Assembly: GCA_051531975.1 (NCBI GenBank)
Contig: JAOPTT010000006.1
Location: 590,977-654,976 of the forward strand
DNA length: 64,000 nt
Source of the DNA: Spirochaetaceae bacterium
Lineage (GTDB): Bacteria > Spirochaetota > Spirochaetia > DSM-2461
Direction of reading: 5' to 3'
How positions within the stretch are numbered: the first letter of the stretch is position 1; every line of letters begins with the position of its first letter. Position numbers and translations under genes: made by a program. Below, piece by piece: positions 22,117 to 48,174 of the stretch. Under the pieces are notes generated by a model. That model was given only the letters and a program-made list of their open reading frames with translations, was not told the DNA's origin and searched no databases.

Positions 22117-22128
22117 TCAACTAGTCCT

Positions 22129-25100
22129 TTAAATATCGATTTCTCTCATAGGCAAACTAGAATCAGGTATTTTACTAATTGTTTTCTTTCCAGGACTTTT
22201 AGTTCCTTTTATGTGCTTTGCATTAATCATTTTCATCAGATACCCCATATCTTTGATATTTTTGTCAGTAGCAAAACTAAATCTATATTCGTAGTGTAAA
22301 GTTCTCATGAGATCATAAATATAAAATGAATTTTTATCTACTTTTGTTATATAATCTTGTAAAACTTTTTTCCAATTTAGAGGACGCTTTTTTGCTATTA
22401 GTAGTATAATATAATGAGCTCTGGTATAATTTTTTTCTGCTAATAAATGGTCTATTAGTAATGGACCAATTTTTTGTGAAAATAAATCATCTTCATACCA
22501 TCCAATAATATTTGAAGGTATCTCTATAAGCATGGCTCTTATTCTTTCTTCTCTAGTTTTACCAAAATCACCAACAGCAATAAATTTGATGTCATCAAAT
22601 GATGCAAATCCTTTATCAGCAAGTAAAGGTAATAATACTTGTAAAATATGCCCTACTTGTATCATTCCACCTGTTATAGATTTAAGAATATCCTCTTTTA
22701 AATTTGGATCAGAATAATCACTATTTCTCAGTGCTTTTGATGCAGCTGTCATAGTCATCATCATATTGTGTAATGTATCACTATGTAGTATGTTTTTAAT
22801 TTCTTGATCATAGGGTTTTTGAGCATCATAATATTTATCGGCATATCGATCTTTTATTGAATTGGGAAGATTAGAAGATGAAACGTTATCTACTATTTCT
22901 ACTTCCATTTGTTTTAACGCTTCTGGACTTGGTTTCCACTCTATGTATTGATAAGGATCAAAAGATTCAGGAAGGTTACATTTTGTTTTAACAGCATCAC
23001 GAGTTGAATTTAAATCTTCCATTAAAACTACTAAAGCATCATCTCTTCTCCTATCTATACCTGTATAAAACTCTATAACTTCAGGGAAATTAACATATAT
23101 CTTTTTATCAAATATAAATAATGCAAAATCTTTATCCTGGTGCATTCGTAATGCTAAAAAATAATGAATCCAATAGGAAAATCTAAAACAAAAATTACCT
23201 TCAAATATAACAAATATATGATTATTAAATAATATTTCGAATATCATATCTATATCTAAACTCATTTTTCTTTTCTGACAAAAATTATTTATTGTTTGTA
23301 TAAATTGCTTCTTTGTAAAAAAATATGAATCAGATCGAAGTAACGTTTCACAGAAATATCCTAATACAAATTCACAGTCTTTCATGTCAGGCTGTATCTT
23401 ATATGTTGGTAAAACTTCTGTATTAAATAATATGTAAAGTACTCTACTAAGGATTTCCGTTCTATTAACAGGGCTTTCTTCAAATTTTATTTCTGAAGCT
23501 TTTAAAATTGTTATACAATTTAGAGGCGTTCTGTGAATATTTAAAGTCTCTAAATCTGAAACGATTCTAGATGTAACAGCATCTTCATCGCCAATATGTG
23601 TACAATTATTATACCCATTAACAACGCATCTAATATTTTCTCGAGATAATGACATTAGATATAGACTTTCAAAAGATCTTTCATATTGATTCCCAGAGTT
23701 AAATAAACTAAAATTTGCTATTGTATTTAATACAATTACAGGAATTTCTTTATATGTATTTGCTAGAGTATCTAGAAGTCTTTTAGATCCTTTATCTCCA
23801 GAATTCCAAGAATCAAGAATAATACAACTAATATCTTCTCCTTCAAAACCAATTATATCTAATTCTTTCCGTACTTTTCTTTTTATATTTGCTTCTGATG
23901 GTTTTAGAGATCTTGAATCTAAAAACAACCATAATTTACCTTCATTAAGTTCCCATGCAATTTTTGATAAATATCTTCCAAGACAAGTTAACCCAAACTG
24001 AGGTGGGGCATTTATAATAAGAGATCTAGGATTAGCAATTATATCTTCAGGAGTAATTTTTTTTGAATCGGATTTTTTTTCGTCCAATTCACTTACATTT
24101 GATAAACTAGGTGTAACCCAAACTGGTGTTTGTGTTGAATATAAAGATAAAGATTCTTCAAATTGATTTTTTAAATATTTACTAATTATTGCATTAGTTA
24201 TTTCTATGCTATGAGTATATGAACTCTTTATATTTCCAATCTGTTTTATATTTAATGTTCCATCATCAGAAGATGAAAAATCAACTCCACTTACAAAGTT
24301 GTAACCTTTAGACCATTGGCGGTAAATAATTTTATCAATAATAGTATCATCAGAAATTTTAATAATGGAATAACCAAGTTTATCACTTTTATCAGTAAAT
24401 AAAGGTGGTGCTGAAAGTCTTATTAATTGATTGTCTTCTGATATATGATGAAAAAATGATTGATCATGAGCATGCCCAGATAGAAGTAAACAATAACTGT
24501 TCTTTAGAATAATTTCTAACTCTCTCCGAGACCATTCTGTAAGCCAGTCTAAAGGATGATGTAATACAAATATCTTTAATTTAGACTTTGATTCTTGCAT
24601 CCAAATTTGAATATCTCTAGTATTAATACTTAGTCTTCCTTGATCAGCCATATTCGCTTTAGCATGCTTCAACCCACCAATACTAAGAAAAGAAGAATTT
24701 ATACAATATAAACCTATTGCATCACTTAGATCCCAACCCGAACCCGAAAAAGATTTTAGTGATAAACCAAAATTAGCAAATTCACTTTCAAATGCCTTGT
24801 AATTGTTTAGTTTAAGTTTAAAAACATCTGAAGGATTATTACAATAATCATTAAAATCTGTTTCAGATAAATATTGTGATATAATACCTTCATGGTCTGC
24901 CTTCTTAGAAGATATATGTTTGGTAGATAAATCATGATTCCCTGGAACACATATTCTAAAGTTTTTATTTATTCCTAAATTGGAAAGTTTAGAATCAAAT
25001 AGATTTATAAATTGATTATATGCATCTATATCATCTCCACTTTGTACAATATCTCCTGAAATAATTATATATTTATCTACTTTATCAAACTCTTTTAATT

Positions 25101-25206
25101 GTTTTTTAAGATCATCAAAAAATGAATTGAATACTAGTCCATGCTGTTCTTCCCAGTTTGTTTTATAGTGTATATCTGAGATATGAATAAATAATTTTTC
25201 TTTCAT
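22129..25206 (-). CDS. Calcineurin-like metallophosphoesterase fused to STAND-like NTPase with degenerate Walker A
   Basis: SDIH, SGD, PGNHD, HHP, GHAH; APPQFGLT at Walker A, IILDS Walker B, RTPL, winged-helix FCFRFSYW region. Confidence 0.8.
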   Translation of the reverse strand: MKEKLFIHISDIHYKTNWEEQHGLVFNSFFDDLKKQLKEFDKVDKYIIISGDIVQSGDDIDAYNQFINLFDSKLSNLGINKNFRICVPGNHDLSTKHISSKKADHEGIISQYLSETDFNDYCNNPSDVFKLKLNNYKAFESEFANFGLSLKSFSGSGWDLSDAIGLYCINSSFLSIGGLKHAKANMADQGRLSINTRDIQIWMQESKSKLKIFVLHHPLDWLTEWSRRELEIILKNSYCLLLSGHAHDQSFFHHISEDNQLIRLSAPPLFTDKSDKLGYSIIKISDDTIIDKIIYRQWSKGYNFVSGVDFSSSDDGTLNIKQIGNIKSSYTHSIEITNAIISKYLKNQFEESLSLYSTQTPVWVTPSLSNVSELDEKKSDSKKITPEDIIANPRSLIINAPPQFGLTCLGRYLSKIAWELNEGKLWLFLDSRSLKPSEANIKRKVRKELDIIGFEGEDISCIILDSWNSGDKGSKRLLDTLANTYKEIPVIVLNTIANFSLFNSGNQYERSFESLYLMSLSRENIRCVVNGYNNCTHIGDEDAVTSRIVSDLETLNIHRTPLNCITILKASEIKFEESPVNRTEILSRVLYILFNTEVLPTYKIQPDMKDCEFVLGYFCETLLRSDSYFFTKKQFIQTINNFCQKRKMSLDIDMIFEILFNNHIFVIFEGNFCFRFSYWIHYFLALRMHQDKDFALFIFDKKIYVNFPEVIEFYTGIDRRRDDALVVLMEDLNSTRDAVKTKCNLPESFDPYQYIEWKPSPEALKQMEVEIVDNVSSSNLPNSIKDRYADKYYDAQKPYDQEIKNILHSDTLHNMMMTMTAASKALRNSDYSDPNLKEDILKSITGGMIQVGHILQVLLPLLADKGFASFDDIKFIAVGDFGKTREERIRAMLIEIPSNIIGWYEDDLFSQKIGPLLIDHLLAEKNYTRAHYIILLIAKKRPLNWKKVLQDYITKVDKNSFYIYDLMRTLHYEYRFSFATDKNIKDMGYLMKMINAKHIKGTKSPGKKTISKIPDSSLPMREIDI

Positions 25207-26933: not shown

Positions 26934-27767
26934 TTAAATCATAGAAACTAATTTTTCCATATCAATCAGTTCTATAGAAGGTTTAACTTTTTCAGCAAAA
27001 TCAATGGCTGTTCTAGTAAAACCAGAATAACTGACGAATAAGCCACAATCAGCATTATTAGAATATAAAGCTCCAAGAAATTTCTGTAATTGACTTATAG
27101 AAACTTTATTGTTTATTGAATATTTTTTTACTTCTACTAATGTTTTATAGTAGCTTTTATAATTGTGCAATAAAAAATCATAACCATAATTATCAATACC
27201 AGAACTTCGAAGTATGTTTTGGTATTTCTGTTGAAAGATTCTATAAATAATACCTTCAAATTCTCTTCCATTCAAATCATCTATTAAGTTTATATTGTTA
27301 TAGTAGTTAAGAAAATAATCCTTATAATTATTTAACATCTTTGATTTTGTCTCATTTTTCTTTATATGAATATTCTCTATGAAGTTGATTATTTTTGATT
27401 TGACATCGTAATTTAAATATTCCGATTCAATTAAATTTATTAATCTTAAATTTGGTATTAATTTTTCATGATAATCTGTTACTAATAGAATTACCTTATT
27501 CTTACCAAGAGCATAACCAATTTCAAAAATTACATTTGGATCATTCTCATAAAGGAAAGCTATTACAATATCAGATTGGTTAATATTTTCAATCGTATTA
27601 TTTTCTGTACTGATATTTGAATCAATTTGATTATTGTAGTTAATGTCATAATTAAAGTTATCCAATTCAGATTTCAAGTCATACATATATTCTAAATGAT
27701 TTGTGGACATTGATATATAGATCTTTTTCTTCATGATAATCTCCCTAAAGCTCTTGTAATTGACCAA
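26934..27767 (-). CDS. NDT/TIR-like domain fused to Mrr-family restriction endonuclease
   Basis: SDIVIA...NVIFEIGYA N-terminal domain; FE...D-x-GYD...VEVK...SGFT-x-x-A Mrr_cat motifs. Start probably M12 (27734), overlapping the MTase stop. Confidence 0.8.
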   Translation of the reverse strand: MVNYKSFREIIMKKKIYISMSTNHLEYMYDLKSELDNFNYDINYNNQIDSNISTENNTIENINQSDIVIAFLYENDPNVIFEIGYALGKNKVILLVTDYHEKLIPNLRLINLIESEYLNYDVKSKIINFIENIHIKKNETKSKMLNNYKDYFLNYYNNINLIDDLNGREFEGIIYRIFQQKYQNILRSSGIDNYGYDFLLHNYKSYYKTLVEVKKYSINNKVSISQLQKFLGALYSNNADCGLFVSYSGFTRTAIDFAEKVKPSIELIDMEKLVSMI

Positions 27768-36195: not shown

Positions 36196-36385
36196 CCATA
36201 GCTTTCTGAATAGAGTCCTTTAGGTTTCTACTCTCTATAGCTATGTCATGAACTACATCTATAATCTTCACTTTCTCCAGCCACTTTACATATTGAGGTA
36301 AGTTCTTTTTAGTTATATCCAGATCAGTCTCAGCCTTAAACAGCATACGAAGTTTATCTTTTCCTATATCCATAACATCCCCCAC
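36155..36385 (-). CDS. Hypothetical protein
   Basis: Abuts the ardC stop on the same strand. Confidence 0.6.
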   Translation of the reverse strand: MGDVMDIGKDKLRMLFKAETDLDITKKNLPQYVKWLEKVKIIDVVHDIAIESRNLKDSIQKAMDVLDDGISSRHTE

Positions 36386-37272
36386 TACGAAGCAGTCTTA
36401 GCAACTTCTTCTTTAATAACAGAATGATCAATTACATACTTATAAGCTTTCTCTGCTTTTGATGTAGCCGAAGTAAACAACCTGCTATTCTCTTTTATCT
36501 TTTTCAACCAGTACCCAATGTAAGCTGAGTTATTATCAACAACATCTTTAATGATCCCAGCATCATAAGACAGATAAGCACTTCCAATCTCAGCAATTAA
36601 CTCTTCAACAGATCTAAACTCAATGTTGTCCTCTATAGTTAACCTATCGAGCCTAGAACTATGACCAGTAGAATGGATCAACTCATGAAACCACGTAGAA
36701 TAGAACTCTTCCACAGTCTCAAATTGACCTTTTGGAGGTAGTTTAATTAGGTCAGCCTTGGGATAGTAAAGGGGGTTATAGGAGACACCTGTCGAAACAT
36801 CAGGCATTTCACTATAGTTTCTAAGGATTTCCTCAGCTCTTTCAAGTGGAACAAACTCTCTCTGTTCTAACTCTAAAGAGTTTAATATTATTTGCTCTTT
36901 AGTAGTCAGCTTAATATCTTCACACTGATCCAAATGAAAGACCGTATAGTACCGTAGAATAAAGTAAGGCTTTTTATCCTCATCTTCTTCATTATCAATT
37001 CTCTTGAAGAATACTACTGGGAATCCTTTCTCACCTTTCTTGATATATCCACCTCTAGCATCAGCTTGCTTGTAGGTTAGAAAATATGGAGAAGTATCAT
37101 ATTGCATCGCAAGGCAACTCAAGAGTATCTGGTTAATACCACTGTAAACCCTACCACTAGATAAGCTCATAGGTGGAAGTCCTTGTTGAGACTTCCACAG
37201 TTTCTGCCAAGGAATAACACCTTCTTTAAGTTTATCTGTAATAATTTTATTCACCATGTCATACACACTCAT
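36385..37272 (-). CDS. ardC: ArdC-family antirestriction ssDNA-binding protein
   Basis: IPWQK-x-W, YSGIN, TYKQA-x-x-x-GG-x-IKKGEKG, YTVF; zincin-like HELIHSTGH-x-x-RL-x-R, EELIAEIGSA. Confidence 0.92.
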   Translation of the reverse strand: MSVYDMVNKIITDKLKEGVIPWQKLWKSQQGLPPMSLSSGRVYSGINQILLSCLAMQYDTSPYFLTYKQADARGGYIKKGEKGFPVVFFKRIDNEEDEDKKPYFILRYYTVFHLDQCEDIKLTTKEQIILNSLELEQREFVPLERAEEILRNYSEMPDVSTGVSYNPLYYPKADLIKLPPKGQFETVEEFYSTWFHELIHSTGHSSRLDRLTIEDNIEFRSVEELIAEIGSAYLSYDAGIIKDVVDNNSAYIGYWLKKIKENSRLFTSATSKAEKAYKYVIDHSVIKEEVAKTAS

Positions 37273-38173
37273 TTTTCAGACCTCCATCCATTAACTTTTG
37301 TGCATACTCTTTTAGGTAAGATCCATCGGGCAGGATTTCACTAACAGCTAAAAGCCTCTCTTTAAATGGGAAGAAATTACTCATCTCAACATCAATATCA
37401 GCACCCCAGTCATCAAGCTTTTTTTGGATAAGTAATGCATCAATCTGGAGATAATTTTTACCATCTTCAGATTTAGAACCACCTTTTCCCCTACCCGGAA
37501 CCTTGAAGTCATCCTTAACTTTATTGACTACTTCAACCTTCTTATCAGACTTCCCGGAACCTTGTTTCTCCTTATCCAGTAAAGACTTATACGCACCATT
37601 AATAGTCAACATTCCTGCTCTAATAGACTCCTTAGTCTTATCAGATCCTCTGTTTATTACAGTGATGTATTTCTGGGCAGTACCAATAGAGACTGATAAT
37701 ATTTCAGCTAACTCGTTCTTTTTTCTACCACTCTTTTTTACACCGTGACCAACGTTGTTCACATAGGTTTCTGAAAACTGGAATCTATCTGCATCTGTTA
37801 GATTTCTTCTCTTGAACTGAAGCCCGTATGCATATCGAAGAGCAGAATCAACATCTTCAAAATTTTCATAGATTACAACGACATCTTTTATACCTGCTTT
37901 CTTAGCAGCTTCACATCGAGTATGTCCATCTATTAACATGTTTGTTTCTGTCCAGATAATTACTGGTTGAGAAACATCAAATCCATTTACTTTCATGTCC
38001 TCTGTAATTGATTTAAGTGTCTCTGGATTAATTGGGAACAGATCTACAAATGGCGTACCCTTTTTGATATCCTTTAATTTTATTGTCTCGTAACCATTAC
38101 TTTTAATTTTGAGTGGCTTCTTAACTTTTGAAGACGGTTTTATCCTGTCTTTTAATTTAGTTATAGCATTCAC
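37259..38173 (-). CDS. ParB/Srx N-terminal domain protein with HTH
   Basis: PVIIW...LIDGHTR-x-x-AA, RRNL, ELAEILSVS. Confidence 0.85.
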   Translation of the reverse strand: MNAITKLKDRIKPSSKVKKPLKIKSNGYETIKLKDIKKGTPFVDLFPINPETLKSITEDMKVNGFDVSQPVIIWTETNMLIDGHTRCEAAKKAGIKDVVVIYENFEDVDSALRYAYGLQFKRRNLTDADRFQFSETYVNNVGHGVKKSGRKKNELAEILSVSIGTAQKYITVINRGSDKTKESIRAGMLTINGAYKSLLDKEKQGSGKSDKKVEVVNKVKDDFKVPGRGKGGSKSEDGKNYLQIDALLIQKKLDDWGADIDVEMSNFFPFKERLLAVSEILPDGSYLKEYAQKLMDGGLKNECV

Positions 38174-38245
38174 AATAATGCCCCCTGTTTGAGATATTTA
38201 ATTTTTGTGCTTTGATTTATTGTTGGGTAGAACTACCCGGAACTG

Positions 38246-39166
38246 TTAAACGACTTTAACTTCAATGCTGGCAAGTGTACCTAAGACATGTTCATTCATC
38301 TCAATAACCTTGTTGCCAGTTGTATCATTAACTATCTGATCAATAATCCATTGGAAGTGAGTATTACTAAAAAGATCCTTACTCTTTTTCATTAACTTTT
38401 GAAGTTCATGATGGGCATCACTCTCTATAGGAAATAGAGGTTTTGTAGAATCATGAACAACGTTGTTCACAGGTCTTTGTAACTTTGGTTCCTGGATATC
38501 TTCTACACCCTCAGATAACCAGTCCTTCATAGCTTTACCAAAATCTTCTCCAGGCTTCTCTATAATAGCGTCTTGAAACTTCCCTGTTCTATCTTTAATT
38601 ACTTCACCAATATGATCCGTAGATAATTGCATAAGAAGGTCAAACTCATACTCAATACCTTTACCCTGGGACGGTGCAAGACTGACTCGAACAGGTTTTG
38701 TTTTTCCATTTTGAACCTCTGTTGTCCACTCAGTCTTGCAGCGCATAGTTGAGATGATGTGTCCATCAAAGTTGAGAATTGCATTAACTAAAGCTTTCTG
38801 TTTTGGTGTACCTTCACTCCATGCACTCCAAGTGTTACCTCGATATTTTGCTCTAGCTATACGATCTACTTCCTCTAGTAGTTCTTGCCAACCGTGAGAT
38901 AAGGAATCTATAATTAAGTTGTCATAGTTCCGGGCCTCCCTTATTAGCTTGATATAGTTCTCTATTGATGGTTTAGGTAACTCACATACATCAAAACTGA
39001 ACCTGTCAGCATACTTACTGGCTGATCCCTTCTCACTATCAATAACAGCTATTGAACCACCCATACCCGTAGCTATTCGTAATGCTGTAAATGTCTTACC
39101 ACCACCTGATGGACCAAACAGTGCTAACCTTAATTTGCTTTGTTTCTTAGATGCTCTTTTAAACAT
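38246..39166 (-). CDS. AAA_24 / Sak4-like ATPase
   Basis: GPSGGGKT, VIDSE-x-GS, LIIDSLSH-x-W, EYEFD, KDRT. Confidence 0.85.
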   Translation of the reverse strand: MFKRASKKQSKLRLALFGPSGGGKTFTALRIATGMGGSIAVIDSEKGSASKYADRFSFDVCELPKPSIENYIKLIREARNYDNLIIDSLSHGWQELLEEVDRIARAKYRGNTWSAWSEGTPKQKALVNAILNFDGHIISTMRCKTEWTTEVQNGKTKPVRVSLAPSQGKGIEYEFDLLMQLSTDHIGEVIKDRTGKFQDAIIEKPGEDFGKAMKDWLSEGVEDIQEPKLQRPVNNVVHDSTKPLFPIESDAHHELQKLMKKSKDLFSNTHFQWIIDQIVNDTTGNKVIEMNEHVLGTLASIEVKVV

Positions 39167-39180
39167 ATTTGTCTCCCTTA

Positions 39181-39612
39181 TTATTTAGTTGATTCAATAC
39201 TTCTTTCCGAATTTTCTGTAAAACTGTAATAATTGTTTTTTGAAATTATGATGTGATCTATAACTTTAATTCCTATTAGCTCACCTGCATCAACTAGTCT
39301 TTGAGTTACTGCTTTGTCTTCTGGACTTGGATCTGTATTACCGCTTGGGTGATTGTGAACTAGTATTACGGATGCAGCATTATCTAAAATTGCTTGCTTG
39401 AAAACTTCTCTAGGGTGTATTAACGTTCTATTTAGGATTCCTATTGAAATTAATCTGACTCCTATAACTTGATGTGAACCATCTAAGGTTGCTACTATGA
39501 AATGTTCTTTCTCTAAACATCTATACCTTTTAAGACATGGTAATAAGTCTGTTGGATAGGAAATTTTAACTTCAAACTTCTCTGTTCTCTCACTAATAAT
39601 TTGATATTTCAT
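39181..39612 (-). CDS. radC: RadC-like JAB-domain protein, intact motif
   Basis: EHF, HPREVF, HNHPSG-x-x-x-PS-x-ED, DHIII. Confidence 0.93.
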   Translation of the reverse strand: MKYQIISERTEKFEVKISYPTDLLPCLKRYRCLEKEHFIVATLDGSHQVIGVRLISIGILNRTLIHPREVFKQAILDNAASVILVHNHPSGNTDPSPEDKAVTQRLVDAGELIGIKVIDHIIISKNNYYSFTENSERSIESTK

Positions 39613-39685
39613 TCAAACACTCCTCTGTTTATAAATAAAATAAGCAGGCAACGACCTGCTTTAACTTGTGATTTTTGTTCTTTAT

Positions 39686-40132
39686 TTAAATTGGCTTATA
39701 TGGCCATACTTCATCTTTGGATAGAGTAGCCAACTTGTTATCTGCAAAACTAAAATATCCATCATCTTCTACAATTAAATGATCTAAAACTTCTATCTCT
39801 AATTGACTACCCTTCATTACCATATCTTCAATAATTTGAATGTCTTCAGCTGTTGGTATAGTCATTTCTGGATTACGGCTTTGTGCTGTAACGATAGTTT
39901 TACTACTAGATTTTTGTGCAAGTTTAAATATTTTTTGTGTTAGTTCCGGGTAGAACTTTTTAAAATCAAGAATGTGTATTTTTATTAAATAACAAGAGGC
40001 ATCTAATAGTATGACAAAGATTTTATCTTTATGAAGATTGATACACTCAGTAACTAAATCAAAAACTTCCCGTGAATGACCAATTCTTAAATCTTCTTTA
40101 ATCCGGCGCTCCATTATTATTTGATATTTCAT
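39686..40132 (-). CDS. RadC-like paralog, degenerate metal site
   Basis: Same MKYQII start as 39612, PTAED and LDHLIV...YFSF kept; HxH replaced by QSR. Confidence 0.8.
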   Translation of the reverse strand: MKYQIIMERRIKEDLRIGHSREVFDLVTECINLHKDKIFVILLDASCYLIKIHILDFKKFYPELTQKIFKLAQKSSSKTIVTAQSRNPEMTIPTAEDIQIIEDMVMKGSQLEIEVLDHLIVEDDGYFSFADNKLATLSKDEVWPYKPI

Positions 40133-40210
40133 TTAACCTTCTCCTTCTGGTTATAAATAAAATAGGCAGACCGGATGGCCTGCCTATTTTATTTATGCTT
40201 TTGTTCTTGT

Positions 40211-40657
40211 TTAAACTTCCCTGTATGACCAATCATCGTATTTAGCCATACCTGCAAGTTTGCTTTCTGCATAGCTAAAATATTTATCTTTTGATATGAA
40301 TAAATGATCTAAAACCTTAATATTTATTAAAACACCAGCTTTAACAAATGATTCAATAACTTCTATATTGCCACTATGAATATTCATACTTTTATACTTA
40401 CGACTATTGGCAGTTATGATATATTTACAGTTATCTAAAATTGCTAATCTGCATATTTTGGGTACTAGTTCCGGGTTATCTTTTTTTACGTCTAAGATGT
40501 GTAGCTTTTGGATAAAACAGTCTTTATCTAGGATCAAAACAAACAGATTCTTTTTCTCAGTATCTATAAAGCTCCTTATTACTTTTAAGACATCCTTAAC
40601 ATGATTGATCTGGATACTGGGATAACTCTCACTATCAATAATTACTGGGTAGTTCAT
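40211..40657 (-). CDS. RadC-like paralog, degenerate metal site
   Basis: LFVLILD, LDHLFIS...YFSY kept; HxH replaced by NSR. Confidence 0.78.
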   Translation of the reverse strand: MNYPVIIDSESYPSIQINHVKDVLKVIRSFIDTEKKNLFVLILDKDCFIQKLHILDVKKDNPELVPKICRLAILDNCKYIITANSRKYKSMNIHSGNIEVIESFVKAGVLINIKVLDHLFISKDKYFSYAESKLAGMAKYDDWSYREV

Positions 40658-40683
40658 TGTTACCCTCCTTACTAGATTTTAAT

Positions 40684-41094
40684 TTATTCTTCTTGTACAC
40701 CTTGATAGACTTCAGTGTACTTTCCATCTTCGTAATGCAAGATATTCCACAGCATCGTAGCTATGTTGCTACTAAGAATCTCTTGGATTGCTTTGTTATA
40801 ACCCAAATCCAGTCTCTGACTTTTGGGTTTAATGTTGTAAGCAACTGATATATAAGCTGCTTCATCAAGAATAGAAATTATTGATAAACGACTTAGTACA
40901 GACTCAAAACTTTTTAGACCTTTTATTGGGAATAAATGTAAGTTGTATAGTTGGAACTGATCATTCATTGTTGCTAAGAACAGCGTGTCTATTTCTCGGA
41001 TTATTAGACTGTTGATAATCTTATCGAAATAGTATGAGCTATATAATTTACTATCTATTTTTGGTTGTAGATGGTTTATGATTCTAAATCCCAT
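40684..41094 (-). CDS. Highly diverged RadC-like paralog
   Basis: LFLATMN...SILDEAAYISVAYN aligns with FIVATLD...AILDNAASVILVHN. Confidence 0.55.
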   Translation of the reverse strand: MGFRIINHLQPKIDSKLYSSYYFDKIINSLIIREIDTLFLATMNDQFQLYNLHLFPIKGLKSFESVLSRLSIISILDEAAYISVAYNIKPKSQRLDLGYNKAIQEILSSNIATMLWNILHYEDGKYTEVYQGVQEE

Positions 41095-41212
41095 AGATCC
41101 TCCTTCTAGGTTATAAATAGAAAGAGCAGGCGGTTAAGCCTGCTCAAGATACTCTTCCGGTCTTCTATCCGGTTAGGCCATACGGCCTCAATTTTCCTAC
41201 AGATTGAACTTA

Positions 41213-41302
41213 CTATCTGATAATAATTTTAATAATATCGATAATAATATCTGGTACTGAATTCCCTGAGTCATCTGGTTTTGAAATAATCCATCTTCTC
41301 AT
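41213..41302 (-). CDS. 29-aa Ile-rich peptide
   Basis: TAAGGAGG RBS; MRRWIISKPDDSGNSVPDIIIDIIKIIIR*; below the ORF-track cutoff. Confidence 0.6.
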   Translation of the reverse strand: MRRWIISKPDDSGNSVPDIIIDIIKIIIR

Positions 41303-41456
41303 TTAAGGTTCCTCCTTATTATGGGATCACCTAAATAATATATAAGATGAAGTGGGACTGATGCGATTTTAGAGTAGAGGTTTGTAACATAGATAATTAG
41401 CTGGATGTTATATCCCTACTATCTGTGAAGCCTATTGAGATATTTTTGGTGAAATA

Positions 41457-41822
41457 CTATTCTAAATAGCTATCCTGTCTTTTCATTAATACATACTGCT
41501 TTTGTATTGCGATCTTTTCATTTACAGTTAAGCGAGACCATTTCTCCTTGTATGTCTTAGGATTATTTATAATCTTATTTACGGCACTTCTTCCATACAT
41601 AGGAGATCTACCATTGAAAAAAGCAGGTATTCCAAAGTCAGGAAGTTGCCATTTTATCAACGAGCCTTGAGAGGCATAACCCCATTTAGAAGCTATCTTA
41701 CTTTTATTTAAAAACTCAGGTGCTATTGTGTATCTACGATGTTCTTCTAACTCATTTCTTATCTCTAGTTTTAGTTCGCTAAGAAACTTTTTTAAATAGT
41801 CTGGGATCTTGTCATTTTCCAT
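41457..41822 (-). CDS. Hypothetical protein, possibly DNA-binding (Xis/AlpA-like)
   Basis: GAGG RBS; EFLNKSKIASKWG...W-x-LP weakly HTH-like. Confidence 0.55.
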   Translation of the reverse strand: MENDKIPDYLKKFLSELKLEIRNELEEHRRYTIAPEFLNKSKIASKWGYASQGSLIKWQLPDFGIPAFFNGRSPMYGRSAVNKIINNPKTYKEKWSRLTVNEKIAIQKQYVLMKRQDSYLE

Positions 41823-41929
41823 ATGTACCTCTCGGATTCATTTATTATGATTGCTATTATATCGTATCAATAACCTCTTTCACTTATATATTATTTACCT
41901 GAATACATTGCGTATTAAGGAGAACAAAA

Positions 41930-42292
41930 ATGAATAGTTTAAACTCGATTTTATTAGAAGGTACTCTAATAGAAGATCCTGATGAATCAAGCACAGATAA
42001 TGATGCTATGGTATGCTCATTTTCAATTATGGCCAATAGATCCTATAAGAAGGAAAAAGATCTAATTCAAGAAGAATCATACTTCCCAATAGAAGTATAT
42101 TCTAATATCGCTGAAGCGTGTCTTAAACATTTACACAAAGGTAGAGGTGTCAGAGTTGTTGGAAGACTGAAACAGGACAGATGGTTGGATGAAAATGAAA
42201 ACCAACTCTCCCAAATAAAGATTATCGCTGAACATGTGGAATTTAAGCCTATTGTGGTTCCGGGAGATCAGGTTTTGGATAAGGCTGTTTAA
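41930..42292 (+). CDS. ssb: Single-stranded DNA-binding protein, short form without acidic tail
   Basis: NSILLEG-x-L-x-x-DP...FSI-x-x-NR...KGRGVRVVGRLKQDRW...IIAEHVEF. Confidence 0.92.
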   Translation: MNSLNSILLEGTLIEDPDESSTDNDAMVCSFSIMANRSYKKEKDLIQEESYFPIEVYSNIAEACLKHLHKGRGVRVVGRLKQDRWLDENENQLSQIKIIAEHVEFKPIVVPGDQVLDKAV

Positions 42293-42571
42293 TCAGTTTG
42301 ATTCATTGCGTATTATGGTTCACTGCGAAGAGGTGGATCATTTTTTTTAGTTTTGGATTGTTTCTACTAGTAAGAGATTAAAAACGTATTTCCTATAATG
42401 AGAATCATATCGACTTTTAATTTTTGCTTTCTCCAAAAAAGCAAACTCTTTTCCATTTAGAAACTTCATATATATAAATATTCCTAAACGCTACTAACAT
42501 GTCCATATTACTTTTTTTTAAGAAACTCAAATATCTATGAACTTATCAAAGTTTTATTTGAACTTAAAATC

Positions 42572-42600
42572 TTGACAACTGAAATCATATATCTTATATT
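42572..42600 (+). promoter_or_regulatory. sigma70-type promoter
   Basis: TTGACA-17 nt-TATATT. Confidence 0.75.
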
Positions 42601-42607
42601 TTAATTA

Positions 42608-42700
42608 TTGGATGAGAAGCTTGCTATTTAATAATAGCGTCCCTATTTCGTGCGATACGAAAGACCCCACGTCCAAATATAAATCTAAAGGGGGTCAGGA
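42608..42700 (+). ncRNA. Candidate structured 5' leader RNA
   Basis: Closing stem TTGGATG/CGTCCAA, hairpins GCTATT/AATAGC and TTTCGT/ACGAAA, and GACCCC/GGGGTC pairing over the SD-like region. Confidence 0.45.
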
Positions 42701-42726
42701 TTCCATGAGAAAACTCAGGAAACCTT

Positions 42727-44466
42727 TTGACTATGATATTAATTAATCCAGAAAATTCTTACAGTAACAACATTGCAGGAAAAGTAGGTCCTGTAATTAA
42801 TAAAAGTTATCTTTCAACTGATGTATGTAATTGGTTAACAAATCTTTTATCATCATTTTATGAAGACAATCTCGATGAAGCTATGATTATTGCTAATTTT
42901 AACAACATTCTTGGTGGAGATAATACTATACCAGAAAATTATAAATTATTCCTATTGTTTTGTGCAGTTAAGGGACTGATAAAATCTCCCAATCATCCTT
43001 TTTCTGAAAATGAACATTTGGCTAACAACATCTTCCAATATTTGAATGAATCATACAATACTGATTTCAACTCATTTGCATACACCCTCATTATTGAGGA
43101 AAGAAAAAGAAAAAATGAAAATCGTCTACCTATTTTTATCAATTCCTTGAACATTGCAATCTATCTTTATAGTCAAAAACTAATTGATTATAGAAATTTT
43201 ATCAAATTAGAGAACATCTCAAATACATTCTATAAATTATGTAGTCACAGGAACTACTGGACTTTTGAGGATTTTACAATTGATACAGATATATATGACC
43301 AGTTACTAGATTGGGGATTTTGGTTACGTGTACTTAGAGAAGTTTTACCAGAAGATGAATTTAATAGAGTCTATGATGTAGTTGATTTGACTTTCCTAAA
43401 TAATTACCTGATAAATGAACAGGGGAACACTCTTTTCCATTATACTGAAGCTTACATATCAAATGTTTTGAATGTTGCTGACTACCAGGTAGATAGACAT
43501 TTAATTGATCCTGAATATATATGGTTATTCAAGAAGCAAATTAAGTATTTTAATATTTTACATGACCAGTTTAATAGAATTAAATTTAATAATGATAACC
43601 TAAGGGTTTTACTAAAAGTTTCTCATATTGCATATAGAAGCAACCCACAACAACTTCCAGAAGAAATTAAAAAAGAACTACTATTTCAAAGTAAAAAAAA
43701 TATTGGTAATTATCGGTCTATGTTAAAAGATGCGAATACAACAGCAGTAAGTTATAAAACGAACATGGATACAGTTAATGAAGCTATAAATTTCATCGCA
43801 TATTTTGAATCTCCTTCAAAGGCAGTTATCCAACTAATTCAACTTCTACGCAATTTTGAAGGTATTTCTATAAATGATGACTTAACTTTTGAATATATCA
43901 AACAGTTTGACATGCCTTTCGCCATGCCCTTTAATTCCCAACAATTTTATGATCAAGAACCACCACAAAATAACAATTGGATTATTAGTAAAATAGAATG
44001 GATAATTACTACCTTTTTTGAGTTCAATGATTCCGATATAGATCAAGCAAGAAAAGAGTTAACAAAATTTTTCGGTAGCAGGCTAAAAACAAATAAAAAA
44101 ACAAAATCTCCAAGGGACAAAGACTTTATTGAGCCTGATTCAATATGGAGAGTAGTATATGTTTGCTGTATAAGAGCACTTCACTGTAATCCTGGAGGAA
44201 AATTCCATCAGATTCTATACTTTTCCTGTAATCATGATTCTAGTGAAGATGTAAGAACTGAGGCAAGTAAGGCTTATAAAGAAATTAGACATAATAATCC
44301 TCTACCATCAGATATGGAACGAGTATTAACACTTAGAAGAGTTTTCTGGTATCTAAGACAAGCATATAATGTTTCTTTATTAGGAATCGATAAACTTGAT
44401 ACCAGAGGTGCACAACGTACCTACTCAAAGGAGGTAGAACGATGTAAAGCACGGATGAAGAAATAA
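42727..44466 (+). CDS. 579-aa helical protein of unknown function
   Basis: Long ORF; motif-rich C-terminus (EP-x-x-x-WR, H...D-x-x-x-x-VR-x-x-A, LRQA, GA-x-RT). Start may be ATG 42733. Confidence 0.8.
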   Translation: MTMILINPENSYSNNIAGKVGPVINKSYLSTDVCNWLTNLLSSFYEDNLDEAMIIANFNNILGGDNTIPENYKLFLLFCAVKGLIKSPNHPFSENEHLANNIFQYLNESYNTDFNSFAYTLIIEERKRKNENRLPIFINSLNIAIYLYSQKLIDYRNFIKLENISNTFYKLCSHRNYWTFEDFTIDTDIYDQLLDWGFWLRVLREVLPEDEFNRVYDVVDLTFLNNYLINEQGNTLFHYTEAYISNVLNVADYQVDRHLIDPEYIWLFKKQIKYFNILHDQFNRIKFNNDNLRVLLKVSHIAYRSNPQQLPEEIKKELLFQSKKNIGNYRSMLKDANTTAVSYKTNMDTVNEAINFIAYFESPSKAVIQLIQLLRNFEGISINDDLTFEYIKQFDMPFAMPFNSQQFYDQEPPQNNNWIISKIEWIITTFFEFNDSDIDQARKELTKFFGSRLKTNKKTKSPRDKDFIEPDSIWRVVYVCCIRALHCNPGGKFHQILYFSCNHDSSEDVRTEASKAYKEIRHNNPLPSDMERVLTLRRVFWYLRQAYNVSLLGIDKLDTRGAQRTYSKEVERCKARMKK

Positions 44467-44543
44467 GCATTAACAATGGCTTGAGAATCCAATATTCTCC
44501 AACCTCTTTCTGAGGGCCATAGAAACAAACCTATAGAAAACCA

Positions 44544-44840
44544 ATGAAATTAGGAGCGTTTGTTATGTTTGGAAATAACACAACTCACAAAATACATATC
44601 ACTTATACAAATCACGCAAAAGAAAGAATAGTTCAGAGAGGAATTTCATCTCAAGCTATTGAATTAACAAGAAAGTACGGTACAGAAACAATGACAGATA
44701 TATCAAAAATAGTCACTGTTGATTATGGAGCCTGCTCTATTGCAGAAGAAGATGGAATTGATTTATACCCATATTTTTCAACGACAATTGTAGTCTCAAT
44801 GGATAATGTTCTTAAGACTGCATATTACCATAATATATAA
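44544..44840 (+). CDS. DUF4258-like small protein (putative RelE/BrnT-fold RNase)
   Basis: T-x-HA-x-ER-x-x-QRGIS...IVVS-x-D-x-x-LKTAY; start probably M8 after AGGAG. Confidence 0.7.
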   Translation: MKLGAFVMFGNNTTHKIHITYTNHAKERIVQRGISSQAIELTRKYGTETMTDISKIVTVDYGACSIAEEDGIDLYPYFSTTIVVSMDNVLKTAYYHNI

Positions 44841-44850
44841 GATCTTTATT

Positions 44851-44882
44851 TGGTGGAGAGTGCTTCACTCCCACCATTTTTT
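44851..44882 (+). terminator. Intrinsic terminator
   Basis: TGGTGGAGAGTG / CACTCCCACCA hairpin plus T-run. Confidence 0.75.
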
Positions 44883-44982
44883 ATCATGCTTTATTAGAAC
44901 TTCTCACCCCACACCACAAATTATAAATTAAAATTGAATTTATATTAATCCTTTCTCTATAAAAGATGTAAGGAGAACAAAA

Positions 44983-45225
44983 ATGACAGAGAAAGAATTA
45001 TTATTTGAATTACAGTGTTATAAGATGGCTTTTAATCCCGGTTGTGATATCCATAATCAATCCATTAAAGAACTTGCGGAGTTTATTACGCTACAGGCTG
45101 AGATAAGAACATCAGATAGTACAATAGAATTTAAGACGGCACCTGTTTTGGAATTCTTTGATGACATAATTATAGATGATATGAGAGAAAATATTCTAAG
45201 GATGAATGAAATTATTACTACATGA
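44983..45225 (+). CDS. Hypothetical protein, paralog of 50160-50411
   Basis: MTEKEL-x-x-EL-x-x-YK-x-x-x-NP-x-CDI shared; AAGGAG RBS. Confidence 0.75.
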   Translation: MTEKELLFELQCYKMAFNPGCDIHNQSIKELAEFITLQAEIRTSDSTIEFKTAPVLEFFDDIIIDDMRENILRMNEIITT

Positions 45226-45483
45226 GGTATTCTGAGAGGATCTTGGATATTTTAATGTATCTATATTATGCCAGTAAGACTGTTTATATCAATGTGGCCT
45301 TTGCTCGTAAAGATAATCAAAGACAGCTAAGATGAAAGCTATTCTTAGCCTAGGAAATACGGCTGATCCTGTGTTTGTCTTTTTTCTTAATGTACCTCCA
45401 TTTTTCATGGAGTATAAATCAGATTTGGAATTCTACAAGGTGGAGTTAATTACCGCTTACCTAGTAATAAATATATTTATAAA

Positions 45484-48174
45484 TTATTCAAAATAATTTT
45501 CGTTAAGAATATCATTTATTTCATCTATAAAAGGAAAGTCAGACGAAGAGAACTCATTTATAAATGATTTTAATTGTTGTGTTAGTATTTCAATTATTTT
45601 ATTTTCACTTTTGATTAATAACAAAGATCTAGCGAATGCCAACGTAAACAAAAAACGTGAAAAAGTTTTCCTACATTCATAATGATGATAAAATATGTCC
45701 TCTATTGAGTTATAGTATTCATTTGAAAATTCAATACAATTCATATAAGATTTAGTGACATATAACCAACTTATTGCTGTTAGATATTTCTTACTTCTTT
45801 TATCAGAAGAGTAATAGACTTCCTTATTATTAAAAATAGTAAAAGCTTTTTTCATCTCCTTCTGATCATTATCAGATAAAGATTTAAATAAAGAATATTC
45901 ACCTTTTAGTTGATAATATTCAGTATCAATCATTGACTCACCTATTAAATACTCCCTTGAATTATATATTTCTTCAATATTGTTAAGTATTGACTTAGCG
46001 TCACGAAAATTATTTTTCCATATTTGGATTCGACATAGTGATTGTAAAGGCATTAAATAATAGCGATCATTATTTCGTTTTAATTCATTATAAATTATTA
46101 ATGATTTTTTTATATGCTTTTCTGCTAACTCCAATTTACCAATTTCTACATAATGATAACCTAGATTATTATGGTATCTTGCAATAGAAAATAAATCATT
46201 GCTAATTATTGCACTATTTAGAGCTTTCGTCTTATAGAGTTCTGCCTCAGAATATTTAGCTAATGATCCAAGACTACCCCCAATATTATCTGAAATATTC
46301 ATTGAAACCCTATAATATTGGTCATTCCGTTTATTCTTATTTACTTTATTAAGAATTCTATAAGCATCTTTTTTTAATTTTAAAGCAGCTTCATGTCCTT
46401 TTAATAAACCAATAGTATAGGCGTATCTGGAAATATACGACGCTTTTAAAGGATCAGAGTCTTTCATATGTTTTAGTACTAGTTTATACCCAATTTTTTT
46501 ATATTTTAAAGATACTTCATAGTTCTTTGCTGCTCCATAAACAGCTCCTAATTCATACAAAAATAAAATCTGATAAGTTATATAATCGTATTTCTCAGTA
46601 AGTCCAACAGCAAATTCAAACTTCATTATTATTGGTTCTATATTAGAAAAAGAGTCATAAGCAGCAGTTGAGTTTTCTATAATATAAATAATTTTATCCA
46701 CTAAATCAGGGTTTGAAATTAATTCTTTATTTATTATATCTTTATAATATTCTATAAAATACATAATATAGTTGTGATTTAATAAATAAATCTCGCTCTT
46801 AATCCACTGAGTTAATGATTCATAATTGATATCGTTAGAAATTCGTAGGTAGTCTAAAAATATTCTTTTTTTATCATTAAAAAATGTATTATCAAAAGCA
46901 GATAAAAAAATATTGTGACAGTTATACTCAGCATTGTCTCCTAATGTGTTTTGCTTAAGTATACCAATACGGATTAGGGAGTGTATAACTTCATCAATAT
47001 TGACTAGTAAATTAGTATGTTTTTTAATACATTTTAAGATCTCATATTTGATATTACCACCTGTAGTGAATAATATAATAACTAGTATAATATATCCATT
47101 ATTCAAAATATCAATATTTGATGAAATCTGTGTTATATGCATGACTAAGTCATGAATTGTTGTATATCCATCATTTTCTAGTGAAAATGATGGTGGTAAA
47201 CTTGGTAATGTAGCAAAACTATCATCAATGATAGTTTTTAATAAATCATTACCAGTTGTAATATAATATTCTTCTATTGTTTTTGAATAATAACTAATTA
47301 ACTTAGGATGAGAACCTAATTTATTTATCAATAAATCTAAATAATATTCATTGTTTAGTACTTTATGATATTCTAATGCATTTGAATAAAATAATTGTCT
47401 AGCCTCTAACTTTGAAATACTTTCAATACTATAATAATAAACATTATTATTAGGAACATTACCAAACCATTGTCTAGATGTTAAAATGACTTTCCATACA
47501 TCTCTATTTAGTCCCATGATTATGTCAGGGGGGAATTTAGAATTAGAACTAATATTATCTATAATAAGAAGATTTGGTCCAGGTGTTCTTGAGTTTAGAA
47601 AATCTAATATATCAGTTGTTGTTTCTAATCTATATGAAGAAAACCTACTAAGATACTGAGAAAGAGTAGTTAAAATATCTGTACCTTGTATATCAACATA
47701 TATACGATGTACAAAATACTCTTTTTTCCCATAATAAATTAGACCTGCTAATGTTGTTTTACCCCAACCCCCAATTCCTTGTAGGAATAGGATATGATAC
47801 TTATTAAATTTTTTAAAAAGCAGACTCACAATTTCTTTTCGTTGAAGCTCTGATAGGTTATTCCCAGAAATCGGACGCTCTCCTAATTCATTTATATTAT
47901 ATCCATATTTTTCTACACCAACTTTGAATCGCATTACGTTATCTCTAAGTTTTCCAACAGGAATAATTTTACTATCAAACCATGTCCTAATATAATTCCA
48001 GTCTTTAACATCAAAAATATCTATTAAAATTCTTCTCATGTTTCTTGGTGGATAAAAATCATCAGACTGAGATGGTTTATGTGTATCCGAATTACTATCA
48101 ATTTGGTTATAGTACCACAGGATAAAATCATGTATTATTTGAGAACTTCTATTTCTATTTTTAATTAACTTCAT
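45484..48174 (-). CDS. STAND (NB-ARC-like) NTPase with C-terminal TPRs
   Basis: GIGGWGKT, LLIIDN, ILTSR, LGSHP; TPR-like NIGGSLGSL and HNNLGYHY segments. Confidence 0.85.
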   Translation of the reverse strand: MKLIKNRNRSSQIIHDFILWYYNQIDSNSDTHKPSQSDDFYPPRNMRRILIDIFDVKDWNYIRTWFDSKIIPVGKLRDNVMRFKVGVEKYGYNINELGERPISGNNLSELQRKEIVSLLFKKFNKYHILFLQGIGGWGKTTLAGLIYYGKKEYFVHRIYVDIQGTDILTTLSQYLSRFSSYRLETTTDILDFLNSRTPGPNLLIIDNISSNSKFPPDIIMGLNRDVWKVILTSRQWFGNVPNNNVYYYSIESISKLEARQLFYSNALEYHKVLNNEYYLDLLINKLGSHPKLISYYSKTIEEYYITTGNDLLKTIIDDSFATLPSLPPSFSLENDGYTTIHDLVMHITQISSNIDILNNGYIILVIILFTTGGNIKYEILKCIKKHTNLLVNIDEVIHSLIRIGILKQNTLGDNAEYNCHNIFLSAFDNTFFNDKKRIFLDYLRISNDINYESLTQWIKSEIYLLNHNYIMYFIEYYKDIINKELISNPDLVDKIIYIIENSTAAYDSFSNIEPIIMKFEFAVGLTEKYDYITYQILFLYELGAVYGAAKNYEVSLKYKKIGYKLVLKHMKDSDPLKASYISRYAYTIGLLKGHEAALKLKKDAYRILNKVNKNKRNDQYYRVSMNISDNIGGSLGSLAKYSEAELYKTKALNSAIISNDLFSIARYHNNLGYHYVEIGKLELAEKHIKKSLIIYNELKRNNDRYYLMPLQSLCRIQIWKNNFRDAKSILNNIEEIYNSREYLIGESMIDTEYYQLKGEYSLFKSLSDNDQKEMKKAFTIFNNKEVYYSSDKRSKKYLTAISWLYVTKSYMNCIEFSNEYYNSIEDIFYHHYECRKTFSRFLFTLAFARSLLLIKSENKIIEILTQQLKSFINEFSSSDFPFIDEINDILNENYFE

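Follow-up and report, generated by a model that had tools for sequence, protein, structure and literature searches.

A 64,000-nt stretch from a Spirochaetaceae bacterium (assembly GCA_051531975.1, contig JAOPTT010000006.1, positions 590,977 to 654,976 of the forward strand; here called the window) carries at positions 42572-44882 a compact two-gene unit, in which the gene for a 577-residue all-helical protein is followed by one for a 91-residue DUF4258-like protein, and each gene lies behind a structured RNA element. The reading that we favour, at roughly even odds, is that the unit is a mobile conflict cassette, serving either defence or addiction, whose expression is gated and coupled by the RNA folds. 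This reading builds on the anatomy and conservation of the unit, on the family links of its proteins and on the genes associated with them, and supposes in addition that ribosome-binding sites are masked, that translation of the two genes is coupled, and that the large protein has a part in the control. The unit is composed of the following features.

42572-44882, + strand, whole unit as read from the sequence: promoter, leader, open reading frame (ORF) of 577 amino acids, intergenic junction, ORF of 91 amino acids, terminator
42572-42600, + strand, sigma-70-type promoter: TTGACA (42572-77), 17 nt, TATATT (42595-42600), scoring 11/12
42607-42732, + strand, structured 5' leader, from pairing in three sequences and folding energy
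42610-14 with 42670-74, + strand, closing helix P1 of the leader, GGAUG with CGUCC, proposed fold
42622-28 with 42633-39, + strand, leader hairpin P2, proposed fold
42646-51 with 42657-62, + strand, leader hairpin P3, proposed fold
42663-68 with 42691-96, + strand, leader pseudoknot helix, GACCCC with GGGGUC, covering the Shine-Dalgarno sequence of the upstream ORF
42698-42704 with 42718-42724, + strand, leader hairpin (GGAUUCC/AGGAAAC) covering AGGAAA, the likely Shine-Dalgarno sequence of the large ORF
42705-42746, + strand, upstream ORF of 13 codons behind a conserved GGGGG Shine-Dalgarno sequence, overlapping the start of the large ORF in the +1 frame
42733-44466, + strand, large protein, 577 amino acids, all-alpha HEAT/ARM-like solenoid, from the ORF and an AlphaFold2 (AF2) model
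44467-44564, + strand, intergenic RNA element, from pairing in four sequences
44471-75 with 44561-65, + strand, long-range helix UAACA with UGUUA, the 3' strand ending in the A of ATG 44565
44476-44520, + strand, three-way junction ATGGC...GCCAT
44530-33 with 44551-54, + strand, helix CCUA with UAGG, overlapping the Shine-Dalgarno sequence AGGAG (44552-56)
44565-44840, + strand, small protein, 91 amino acids, divergent DUF4258 (BECR, colicin-like) putative RNase, from homology and a model
44851-44882, + strand, intrinsic terminator: 11-pair bulged stem (44851-44876) and T run, -16.2 kcal/mol, z score -5.49

The unit was found again in three other loci, namely L002, from a spirochaete in the same class (NCBI lists its protein under Spirochaeta cellobiosiphila), and the metagenome contigs L074 and L075; in all three the small gene lies directly downstream of the large one. 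Three-way nucleotide identity in an alignment of the window (L001), L002, and L074, taken in windows of 40 nt, is 0.78-0.80 in the leader (42607-42666), 0.82 in the intergenic stretch (44469-44507), and 0.88 around the start of the small gene (44544-44583), as against 0.25-0.50 across most of the large ORF. Beyond about 42570 and about 44885 it is 0.20 or lower, and the flanks of the three loci are unrelated. The cassette is a self-contained, portable unit with homology that ends at promoter and terminator, and the constraint on its non-coding RNA elements exceeds that on its proteins. Both promoter hexamers and the 17-nt spacing, read directly, recur in L002 and L074 with varying spacer letters. 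The promoter is the only site with a score of at least 11 among 27 promoter-like sites in 41800-45600, a total that is not above that of shuffled sequences (21.5 +/- 4.0). At the place of the terminator, L002, L074, and L075 each have a GC hairpin followed by a T run, different in each case; in the window this terminator was missed by a simple scanner because its stem carries a bulge. An earlier note on this DNA, made from the letters alone, had proposed a self-contained unit with a near-consensus promoter, a leader of several hairpins in which GACCCC can pair with GGGGTC, an intergenic three-way junction, and a terminator, and all of these elements are present where it had drawn them. Leader, intergenic stretch, and both genes each occur once in the assembly of this genome (5.46 Mb, 29 contigs), and a repeated mobile element or the end of an insertion sequence is therefore ruled out.

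In the proposed fold of the leader, P1 closes a junction that contains P2 and P3, and the pseudoknot helix and the last hairpin cover the two Shine-Dalgarno sequences that follow. Among the 90 pair cells of the three available sequences 98.9% are paired, compared with 39-50% when the partners are slid, and two pairs of P1 are altered on both sides. The leader has a minimum free energy of -36.1 kcal/mol (z score -3.83), and none of 200 shuffled sequences was equally stable. The ATG of the upstream ORF is retained in L001, L002, and L074, at distances of 28, 28, and 25 nt from the main ATG, and the ORF is 13, 19, and 16 codons long, respectively. Because of these varying stops, an N-terminal extension of the large protein or a programmed frameshift from the upstream ATG can be ruled out; in the protein record P0004 the same RNA stretch has merely been read through by the gene caller. 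The upstream ORF was absent from the earlier note.

The intergenic element begins right behind the large gene: UAACA of the long-range helix starts 5 nt past the TAA stop (44464-66). The three-way junction folds as drawn in the earlier note, with a z score of -2.19 (6 of 200 shuffled sequences equally stable). All 96 pair cells in the four sequences are paired, compared with 35-48% when slid, and most pairs are invariant; one pair in the GAGAAU/AUUCUC stem is altered on both sides, from UA to CG, in L074 and L075. The helices that would mask ribosome-binding sites in the leader and the intergenic region are invariant in the three or four sequences available. Scanning 40000-47000 against Rfam 15 gave just two unrelated matches below threshold (E 0.63-0.64). 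The Rfam comparison suggested in the earlier note thus returned no relevant family for the window RNAs, and the covariation that it also suggested is observed at a level short of significance. The pattern of the intergenic junction was also sought in viral contigs and had no match there.

For the large protein, ATG 42733 is the most likely start, and not TTG 42727, because the database record (P0001) has 577 residues; the earlier note had correctly seen a large helical protein, and only its length of 579 residues needs to be changed. No match to the protein was obtained in Pfam, NCBIfam, or PADLOC, and these scans gave neither a DNA-binding nor a known antitoxin domain. A word search of 5.8 billion proteins returned five relatives at E <= 1e-3 besides the protein's own record, four of them full-length (55, 53, 45, and 43% identity) and the fifth aligned across 23% of the query. 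An exhaustive HMMER search expanded the family to 257 representative clusters at E <= 1e-3, with 145 at E <= 1e-10. Its members are mostly 530-620 residues long and most strongly conserved in residues 260-575, and Trp472, Arg473, Leu483, and Asp502 are invariant across 107 aligned sequences. The AF2 model based on an alignment of 107 relatives is all-alpha with 25 helices (predicted local distance difference test score, pLDDT, 92.4; predicted template modelling score 0.90). Comparison with the PDB by Foldseek gave no chain at E <= 1e-3, the rows from VIA-align were all generic HEAT/ARM proteins or designed repeats (Z up to 9.6, which is within the range common for helical repeats), and ESM Atlas gave only HEAT-repeat leads (0.88-0.90). 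Including the window's own, three of 61 related genomes have a relative of the protein, which amounts to a patchy spread. In the poribacterial locus L035 (2582-6091) an open frame of 1169 amino acids, about twice the usual length, spans the solenoid gene without any Pfam domain and may be a tandem duplication or fusion. Ten long relatives (661-1195 amino acids) likewise gave no Pfam domain.

More distant relatives of the large protein were collected from genome contigs (70 loci, mostly Poribacteria, Latescibacterota, Myxococcota, and Planctomycetota) and from metagenomes (4 loci). In these four phyla the solenoid gene is the first gene of operons; the genes upstream of it are mutually unrelated (65 scanned), and those downstream on the same strand fall into recurring clusters. 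These are beta-CASP metallo-beta-lactamase nucleases of about 535 amino acids (25 loci), radical SAM proteins of about 299 amino acids (24 loci), with a protein of about 198 amino acids often coming next (13 loci), and B12-binding radical SAM proteins of about 467 amino acids (15 loci). The 299-residue proteins are prokaryotic viperins, as the PADLOC pVip models match all six tested (E 1e-75 to 1e-118) and NCBIfam viperin_w_prok all four tested (283-323 bits, with a cutoff of 180). The 198-residue protein is dTMP-kinase-like and matches PADLOC PDC-M51B and VakA in both cases examined, and the B12 radical SAM enzymes match PDC-M51A in 3/3 (E 1.7e-87, 7.7e-86, and 1.3e-13). None of three beta-CASP proteins had a PADLOC match, and their resemblance to aCPSF1 and Cas14 stays below the cutoffs. 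Of the 73 other distant loci, 7 (L004, L005, L006, L007, L010, L016, and L066) have a DUF4258-like gene behind the large gene. In L004, L005, L007, and L066 it is placed between the large gene and viperin, and in L006 a B12 radical SAM gene takes the place of viperin. No description of the solenoid family or of its link to viperin was found in Pfam, NCBIfam, PADLOC, or the literature searched. The earlier note had suspected a toxin or defence setting, and the viperin, PDC-M51A, and beta-CASP genes beside relatives of the large protein strengthen that suspicion.

Effectors change freely behind the solenoid gene. A FastTree phylogeny was built from 70 full-length large proteins, leaving out L003, L035, L071, L072, L073, and L075 and rows outside 500-700 amino acids, and each was labelled by its next same-strand gene within 1.1 kb: viperin in 21 rows, beta-CASP in 21, B12 radical SAM in 14, DUF4258 only in 3, and none in 11. 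On this tree the label changes at least 23 times, where the minimum possible is 3 and the mean for shuffled labels is 29.1. In five pairs whose effectors differ, the two large proteins share 77-82% identity, and no region is consistently lower across the pairs. Among three pairs of 83-90% identity, two share the effector and one combines pVip with an unlabelled row. Because effectors swap between large proteins that are 77-82% identical, the large protein does not appear fitted to any one effector, and such swapping speaks, in that clade, against a protein antitoxin tailored to its effector.

As for the small protein, ATG 44565 is the most likely start because all homologs open with MFGNN or MYGNN and an AGGAG stands 8 nt before that ATG. 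Its family can be linked to DUF4258, as the earlier note had proposed: PF14076 matches 9 of 11 aligned members at E <= 0.01 (best E 1.5e-6), with 28.1 bits for the member in L016, and the match of the window's protein covers model positions 1-27. His17, Arg21, Arg25, and Ile27 are invariant in the 11 sequences, in which the motif H-A-x-x-R-x-x-x-R-x-I is present. A word search added 17 further clusters at 59-69% identity, one of them with a precomputed PF14076 match, and the S. cellobiosiphila ortholog is annotated by NCBI as a DUF4258 protein. In an AF2 model (pLDDT 85), two helices precede four strands. Foldseek ranks colicin D tRNase (1tfo, 5znm, 1v74) first for this model, ahead of RelE-like toxins, BrnT, and YoeB; a profile search of PDB sequences gave nothing relevant. 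In the accessible parts of two sources, DUF4258 is listed among BECR-fold toxin families of unknown activity with the gene order antitoxin then toxin (PMC11980606), and is placed in a colicin-like BECR group overlapping Ntox49 (bioRxiv 10.64898/2026.08.28.747851); the same parts make no mention of a large partner for DUF4258. Judging from sequence, we infer that the small protein is a divergent DUF4258 relative and a putative RNase. The protein occurs in 2 of 401 genomes of the phylum, the window's own counted.

Taken as a working mechanism, transcription would run from one promoter to one terminator, with control exerted after transcription. The leader junction and the pseudoknot helix would mask the Shine-Dalgarno sequence of the short upstream ORF, and translation of this ORF would open the hairpin that would otherwise hide the large gene's ribosome-binding site. 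The helix 5 nt past the stop of the large gene, together with CCUA/UAGG, would mask the start codon and Shine-Dalgarno sequence of the RNase gene, with the outcome that the RNase would be made only once ribosomes complete the large gene. The effector would be the DUF4258/BECR-type RNase-like protein, and its partner would represent the spirochaete branch of a widespread alpha-solenoid family that elsewhere provides the invariant first gene before interchangeable antiviral effectors. Most likely, the large protein is a generic regulator or sensor and keeps the effector under control, perhaps via the leader RNAs; a role as tailor-made protein antitoxin is less likely.

Conserved RNA also accompanies the solenoid gene in its distant relatives. 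In Poribacteria and Latescibacterota a gap of 300-600 nt past the large gene is conserved in nucleotides whatever the effector, and contains two motifs, which we call e1 and e2. Motif e1 (35 nhmmer matches in 29 loci) is a helix around a UUGGGAA...UCCC hairpin, and is followed by AAAGGAGGUGA and a small ORF of 33-65 codons; the motif stands before a very strong Shine-Dalgarno sequence. The 29 e1-linked ORFs encode Gly/Asn-rich, basic products that mostly begin with MAKS and bear one of three motifs (WPSKTGNPSGGGRxNAPP, DNRANQLNPNNDAYWQSRG, or TPKAAARIQ..KGSFAARAQ), and none of nine scanned matches Pfam at E below 0.1. A similar basic ORF starting MAKK.. was seen at L080:4124-4255, upstream of a 434-residue gene in genome G437. 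Motif e2 (43 matches in 40 loci) is a three-way junction plus hairpin just before the ribosome-binding site of the effector. Both motifs at times recur past the effector gene. Representative positions are as follows.

L015:4973-5131, L058:4128-4301, L021:4861-5031, and 26 more, e1-linked small ORFs
L015:4886-5379, L058:4062-4479, L026:4980-5636, and about 40 further loci, e1/e2 in the gap that separates the solenoid gene from viperin, beta-CASP, or B12 radical SAM

In e2 (33 sequences) 91.8% of the cells are paired, compared with 33-45% when slid, 14 pairs are altered on both sides, and none of 500 shuffles reaches the observed values. In e1 (31 sequences) 85.4% are paired, compared with 37-61%, and 8 pairs are altered on both sides. 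Many pairs alternate between G-C and G-U on the sense strand, for example GC 13, GU 12, and AU 4 in one pair of e2 and GU 14, GC 13, and AU 4 in another, and this points to a function as RNA. Rfam gave no match to e1 or e2, eight related loci yielding one unrelated match, and no description of the motifs was found in Rfam or the literature searched. The likeness of e1/e2 to the window RNAs is architectural only: a closing helix is combined with two hairpins, one of which has a (C)CAAU/UAAU loop.

In the window the cassette is located between a block of ArdC, ParB-like, AAA_24, four RadC-like, and SSB genes and an NB-ARC-TPR STAND gene, with further STAND/TPR and Mrr-type genes nearby, making three STAND/TPR proteins in all. 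The neighbouring features are as follows.

36385-39166 and 41930-42292, ArdC-N plus zincin metallopeptidase, ParB-like protein, AAA_24 ATPase, and SSB
39181-41094, - strand, four tandem RadC-like genes of 136-148 amino acids, the first matching Pfam RadC at E 7e-43
44983-45225, ORF of 80 amino acids with its own AAGGAG just past the terminator, matching DUF1192 at E 0.035 only and lying outside the conserved unit
19318-25206, 26934-27767, and 45484-48174, likely defence genes encoding the next four proteins
TPR plus metallo-beta-lactamase protein, 932 amino acids
Metallophos plus nSTAND4 protein, 1025 amino acids
nucleoside 2-deoxyribosyltransferase-like plus Mrr_cat fusion, 277 amino acids
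NB-ARC/TPR STAND protein, 896 amino acids

The other three RadC-like genes look like diverged paralogs from their common MKYQII.. starts and their lengths; the last one was scanned and had no Pfam match. Sets like that of ArdC-N, ParB-like protein, AAA_24, and SSB typically mark the leading (entry) region of conjugative or phage-like elements. In another genome (G059) the cassette adjoins an SNF2 helicase and a DNA methylase, and in G437 the DUF4258-like gene has C5 methylase and HEPN/RES genes beside it. Defence and mobile-element genes are usually found in neighbourhoods of this kind.

Several observations weigh against an RNA-gated conflict cassette. Covariation for the window RNAs comes from three or four closely related sequences; 119 of 500 shuffles match the observed score of the leader and 88 of 500 reach that of the intergenic region, neither being significant, and no significance is assigned to the leader since three sequences cannot give it. 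In the minimum-energy fold computed by ViennaRNA, a helix of 42608-17 with 42646-55 replaces P1 and P3 of the leader; this fold and the junction with pseudoknot may be alternatives. The intergenic region as a whole is no more stable than shuffled sequences (z score -1.30, 19 of 200 equally stable). Covariance models R1 (of e2) and R2 (of e1) gave no significant match on the window RNAs, L002, L074, or L075, and for this reason homology with e1/e2 is not claimed; with filters off in 42400-45000, R1 aligned with the leader at 42605-42714 (6.5 bits, E 0.77) and R2 gave nothing at either element. In several Planctomycetota and Myxococcota loci 26-135 nt separate the large gene from the effector and hold no motif of this kind, so RNA gating is not universal in the solenoid family. 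As for whether homologs retain RNAs and partner, a point raised in the earlier note, the close ones keep both in all three loci; most distant relatives are without the DUF4258 partner, and their loci carry RNA motifs other than the window's two. For the small protein, PF14076 is the best Pfam match at 20.8 bits, below the cutoff of 25 (E 4.7e-4), and the Foldseek rows are weak and not significant (E 0.26-1.4, template modelling score 0.39-0.45), the leading ones included (E 0.26-0.47, score 0.44-0.45). Finally, in G437 (L080:4294-5942) a 59%-identical DUF4258-like gene stands behind a 434-residue protein unrelated to the solenoid (hhalign probability 0.2); the spacer between them is short and lacks the junction RNA, and this pair is flanked by a C5 DNA methylase and a HEPN/RES gene.

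The G437 pair bears also on a plain type II toxin-antitoxin or addiction module, in which the 577-residue protein would bind and block the DUF4258 toxin and the RNA folds would only set the toxin-to-antitoxin ratio by translational coupling. A DUF4258-like gene with a different upstream protein is what toxins often display, and the bicistronic layout with its own promoter and terminator, the position beside mobile-element genes, and the order of partner first and DUF4258 second, as listed in the accessible part of PMC11980606, all fit such a module. The relatives of the large protein, however, mostly precede non-toxin enzymes such as viperin, and the large proteins do not diverge upon a change of effector. 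Conservation of a leader above that of the proteins is also unusual for a simple toxin-antitoxin pair, and the scans found in the large protein no domain for binding DNA and none known from antitoxins. We consider this module rather unlikely as the explanation of the unit.

Two further readings appear quite improbable, and to a similar degree. The conserved non-coding stretches could work as DNA, either as transcription-factor operators or as recombination sites for cassette swapping, in keeping with the frequent effector swaps downstream of conserved sequence and the recurrence of e1/e2 before and after effector genes in several loci. Such a role does not agree with helices that stay paired through G-U wobbles on the sense strand only, or with elements that overlap Shine-Dalgarno sequences and start codons, and the unit is not accompanied by a gene for an integrase or a transcription factor. 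Alternatively, the unit could be a stress or RNA-metabolism operon and no conflict system, the small protein being a housekeeping RNA-binding protein. The 29 Gly/Asn-rich basic ORFs behind e1 and the resemblance of the beta-CASP genes to the RNA-processing enzyme aCPSF1 would suit this possibility; the patchy distribution (3/61 relatives and 2/401 phylum genomes), the defence-island surroundings, and the strong viperin and PDC-M51 matches speak against it.

Among known systems, the DUF4258/BECR type II modules are close to the RNA-gated cassette favoured here, which has in common with them a protein of about 90 residues encoded second in a two-gene operon, the N-terminal H-A-x-x-R-x-x-x-R motif, and a predicted alpha/beta fold for which the best structural matches, all weak, are to colicin D tRNase and RelE-like toxins. 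It differs in having two conserved structured RNAs and a small protein below the Pfam cutoff, and in place of the small, DNA-binding, autoregulating antitoxin of type II systems its partner is a 577-residue all-alpha solenoid with no known domain. In type III toxin-antitoxin systems of the ToxIN type, a structured RNA is located directly upstream of an RNase-type toxin gene, and in the window such an RNA likewise precedes the putative RNase gene. Unlike those systems, the window has no terminator between RNA and toxin gene, and the gene for the large protein precedes the intergenic RNA; there is no tandem repeat array, as neither leader nor intergenic region contains tandem repeats (nor direct repeats common to both), and type III can be ruled out on that ground.

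The pVip loci with a kinase (PADLOC PDLC02903-5, VakA; NCBIfam NF038283) correspond to the solenoid family in another way, since in 21 of the 70 rows a relative of the large protein comes directly before pVip in the same orientation, with or without the dTMP-kinase-like gene, and in Myxococcota with a DUF4258-like gene between the large gene and pVip. Among the window ORFs scanned around the cassette there is no viperin or radical SAM gene, and the large protein belongs to no PADLOC model. Similarly, the PADLOC candidate system PDC-M51 is recognised behind relatives of the large protein (M51A in the B12 radical SAM genes, M51B in the kinase after pVip), and the window lacks it; the literature searched yielded no paper on PDC-M51. 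WYL-domain regulators of the BrxR/CapW type co-localise with many different defence systems, according to the accessible part of PMC9122601, and resemble the solenoid family as one conserved upstream gene beside interchangeable defence effectors. Those regulators are small transcription factors that bind DNA, whereas the large protein has no DNA-binding domain, and the conserved elements here overlap ribosome-binding sites, which points to control at the level of RNA.

A wider proposition, which we put forward only tentatively, is that the solenoid family forms the core of an RNA-gated antiviral platform. The solenoid would act through structured leader RNAs and license translation of the downstream effector, be it viperin, B12 radical SAM enzyme, beta-CASP nuclease, or DUF4258 RNase, and the leaders (the two junction elements in the window, e1/e2 elsewhere) would double as homology arms for effector swapping.

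To our knowledge, most known defence regulators are DNA-binding proteins. If the proposals made here are correct, the unit would add another case of defence or toxin genes under translational control by conserved RNA folds, and the window's two-gene version is compact, at 2.3 kb. Motifs e1 and e2 are two concrete new RNA motifs outside Rfam, with solid covariation in 33 sequences for e2 and 31 for e1. The solenoid family is a constant neighbour of bacterial viperins and of two other effector types in sponge-associated and marine phyla, and the cassette would provide the first functional handle on this unannotated protein family of at least 257 clusters.

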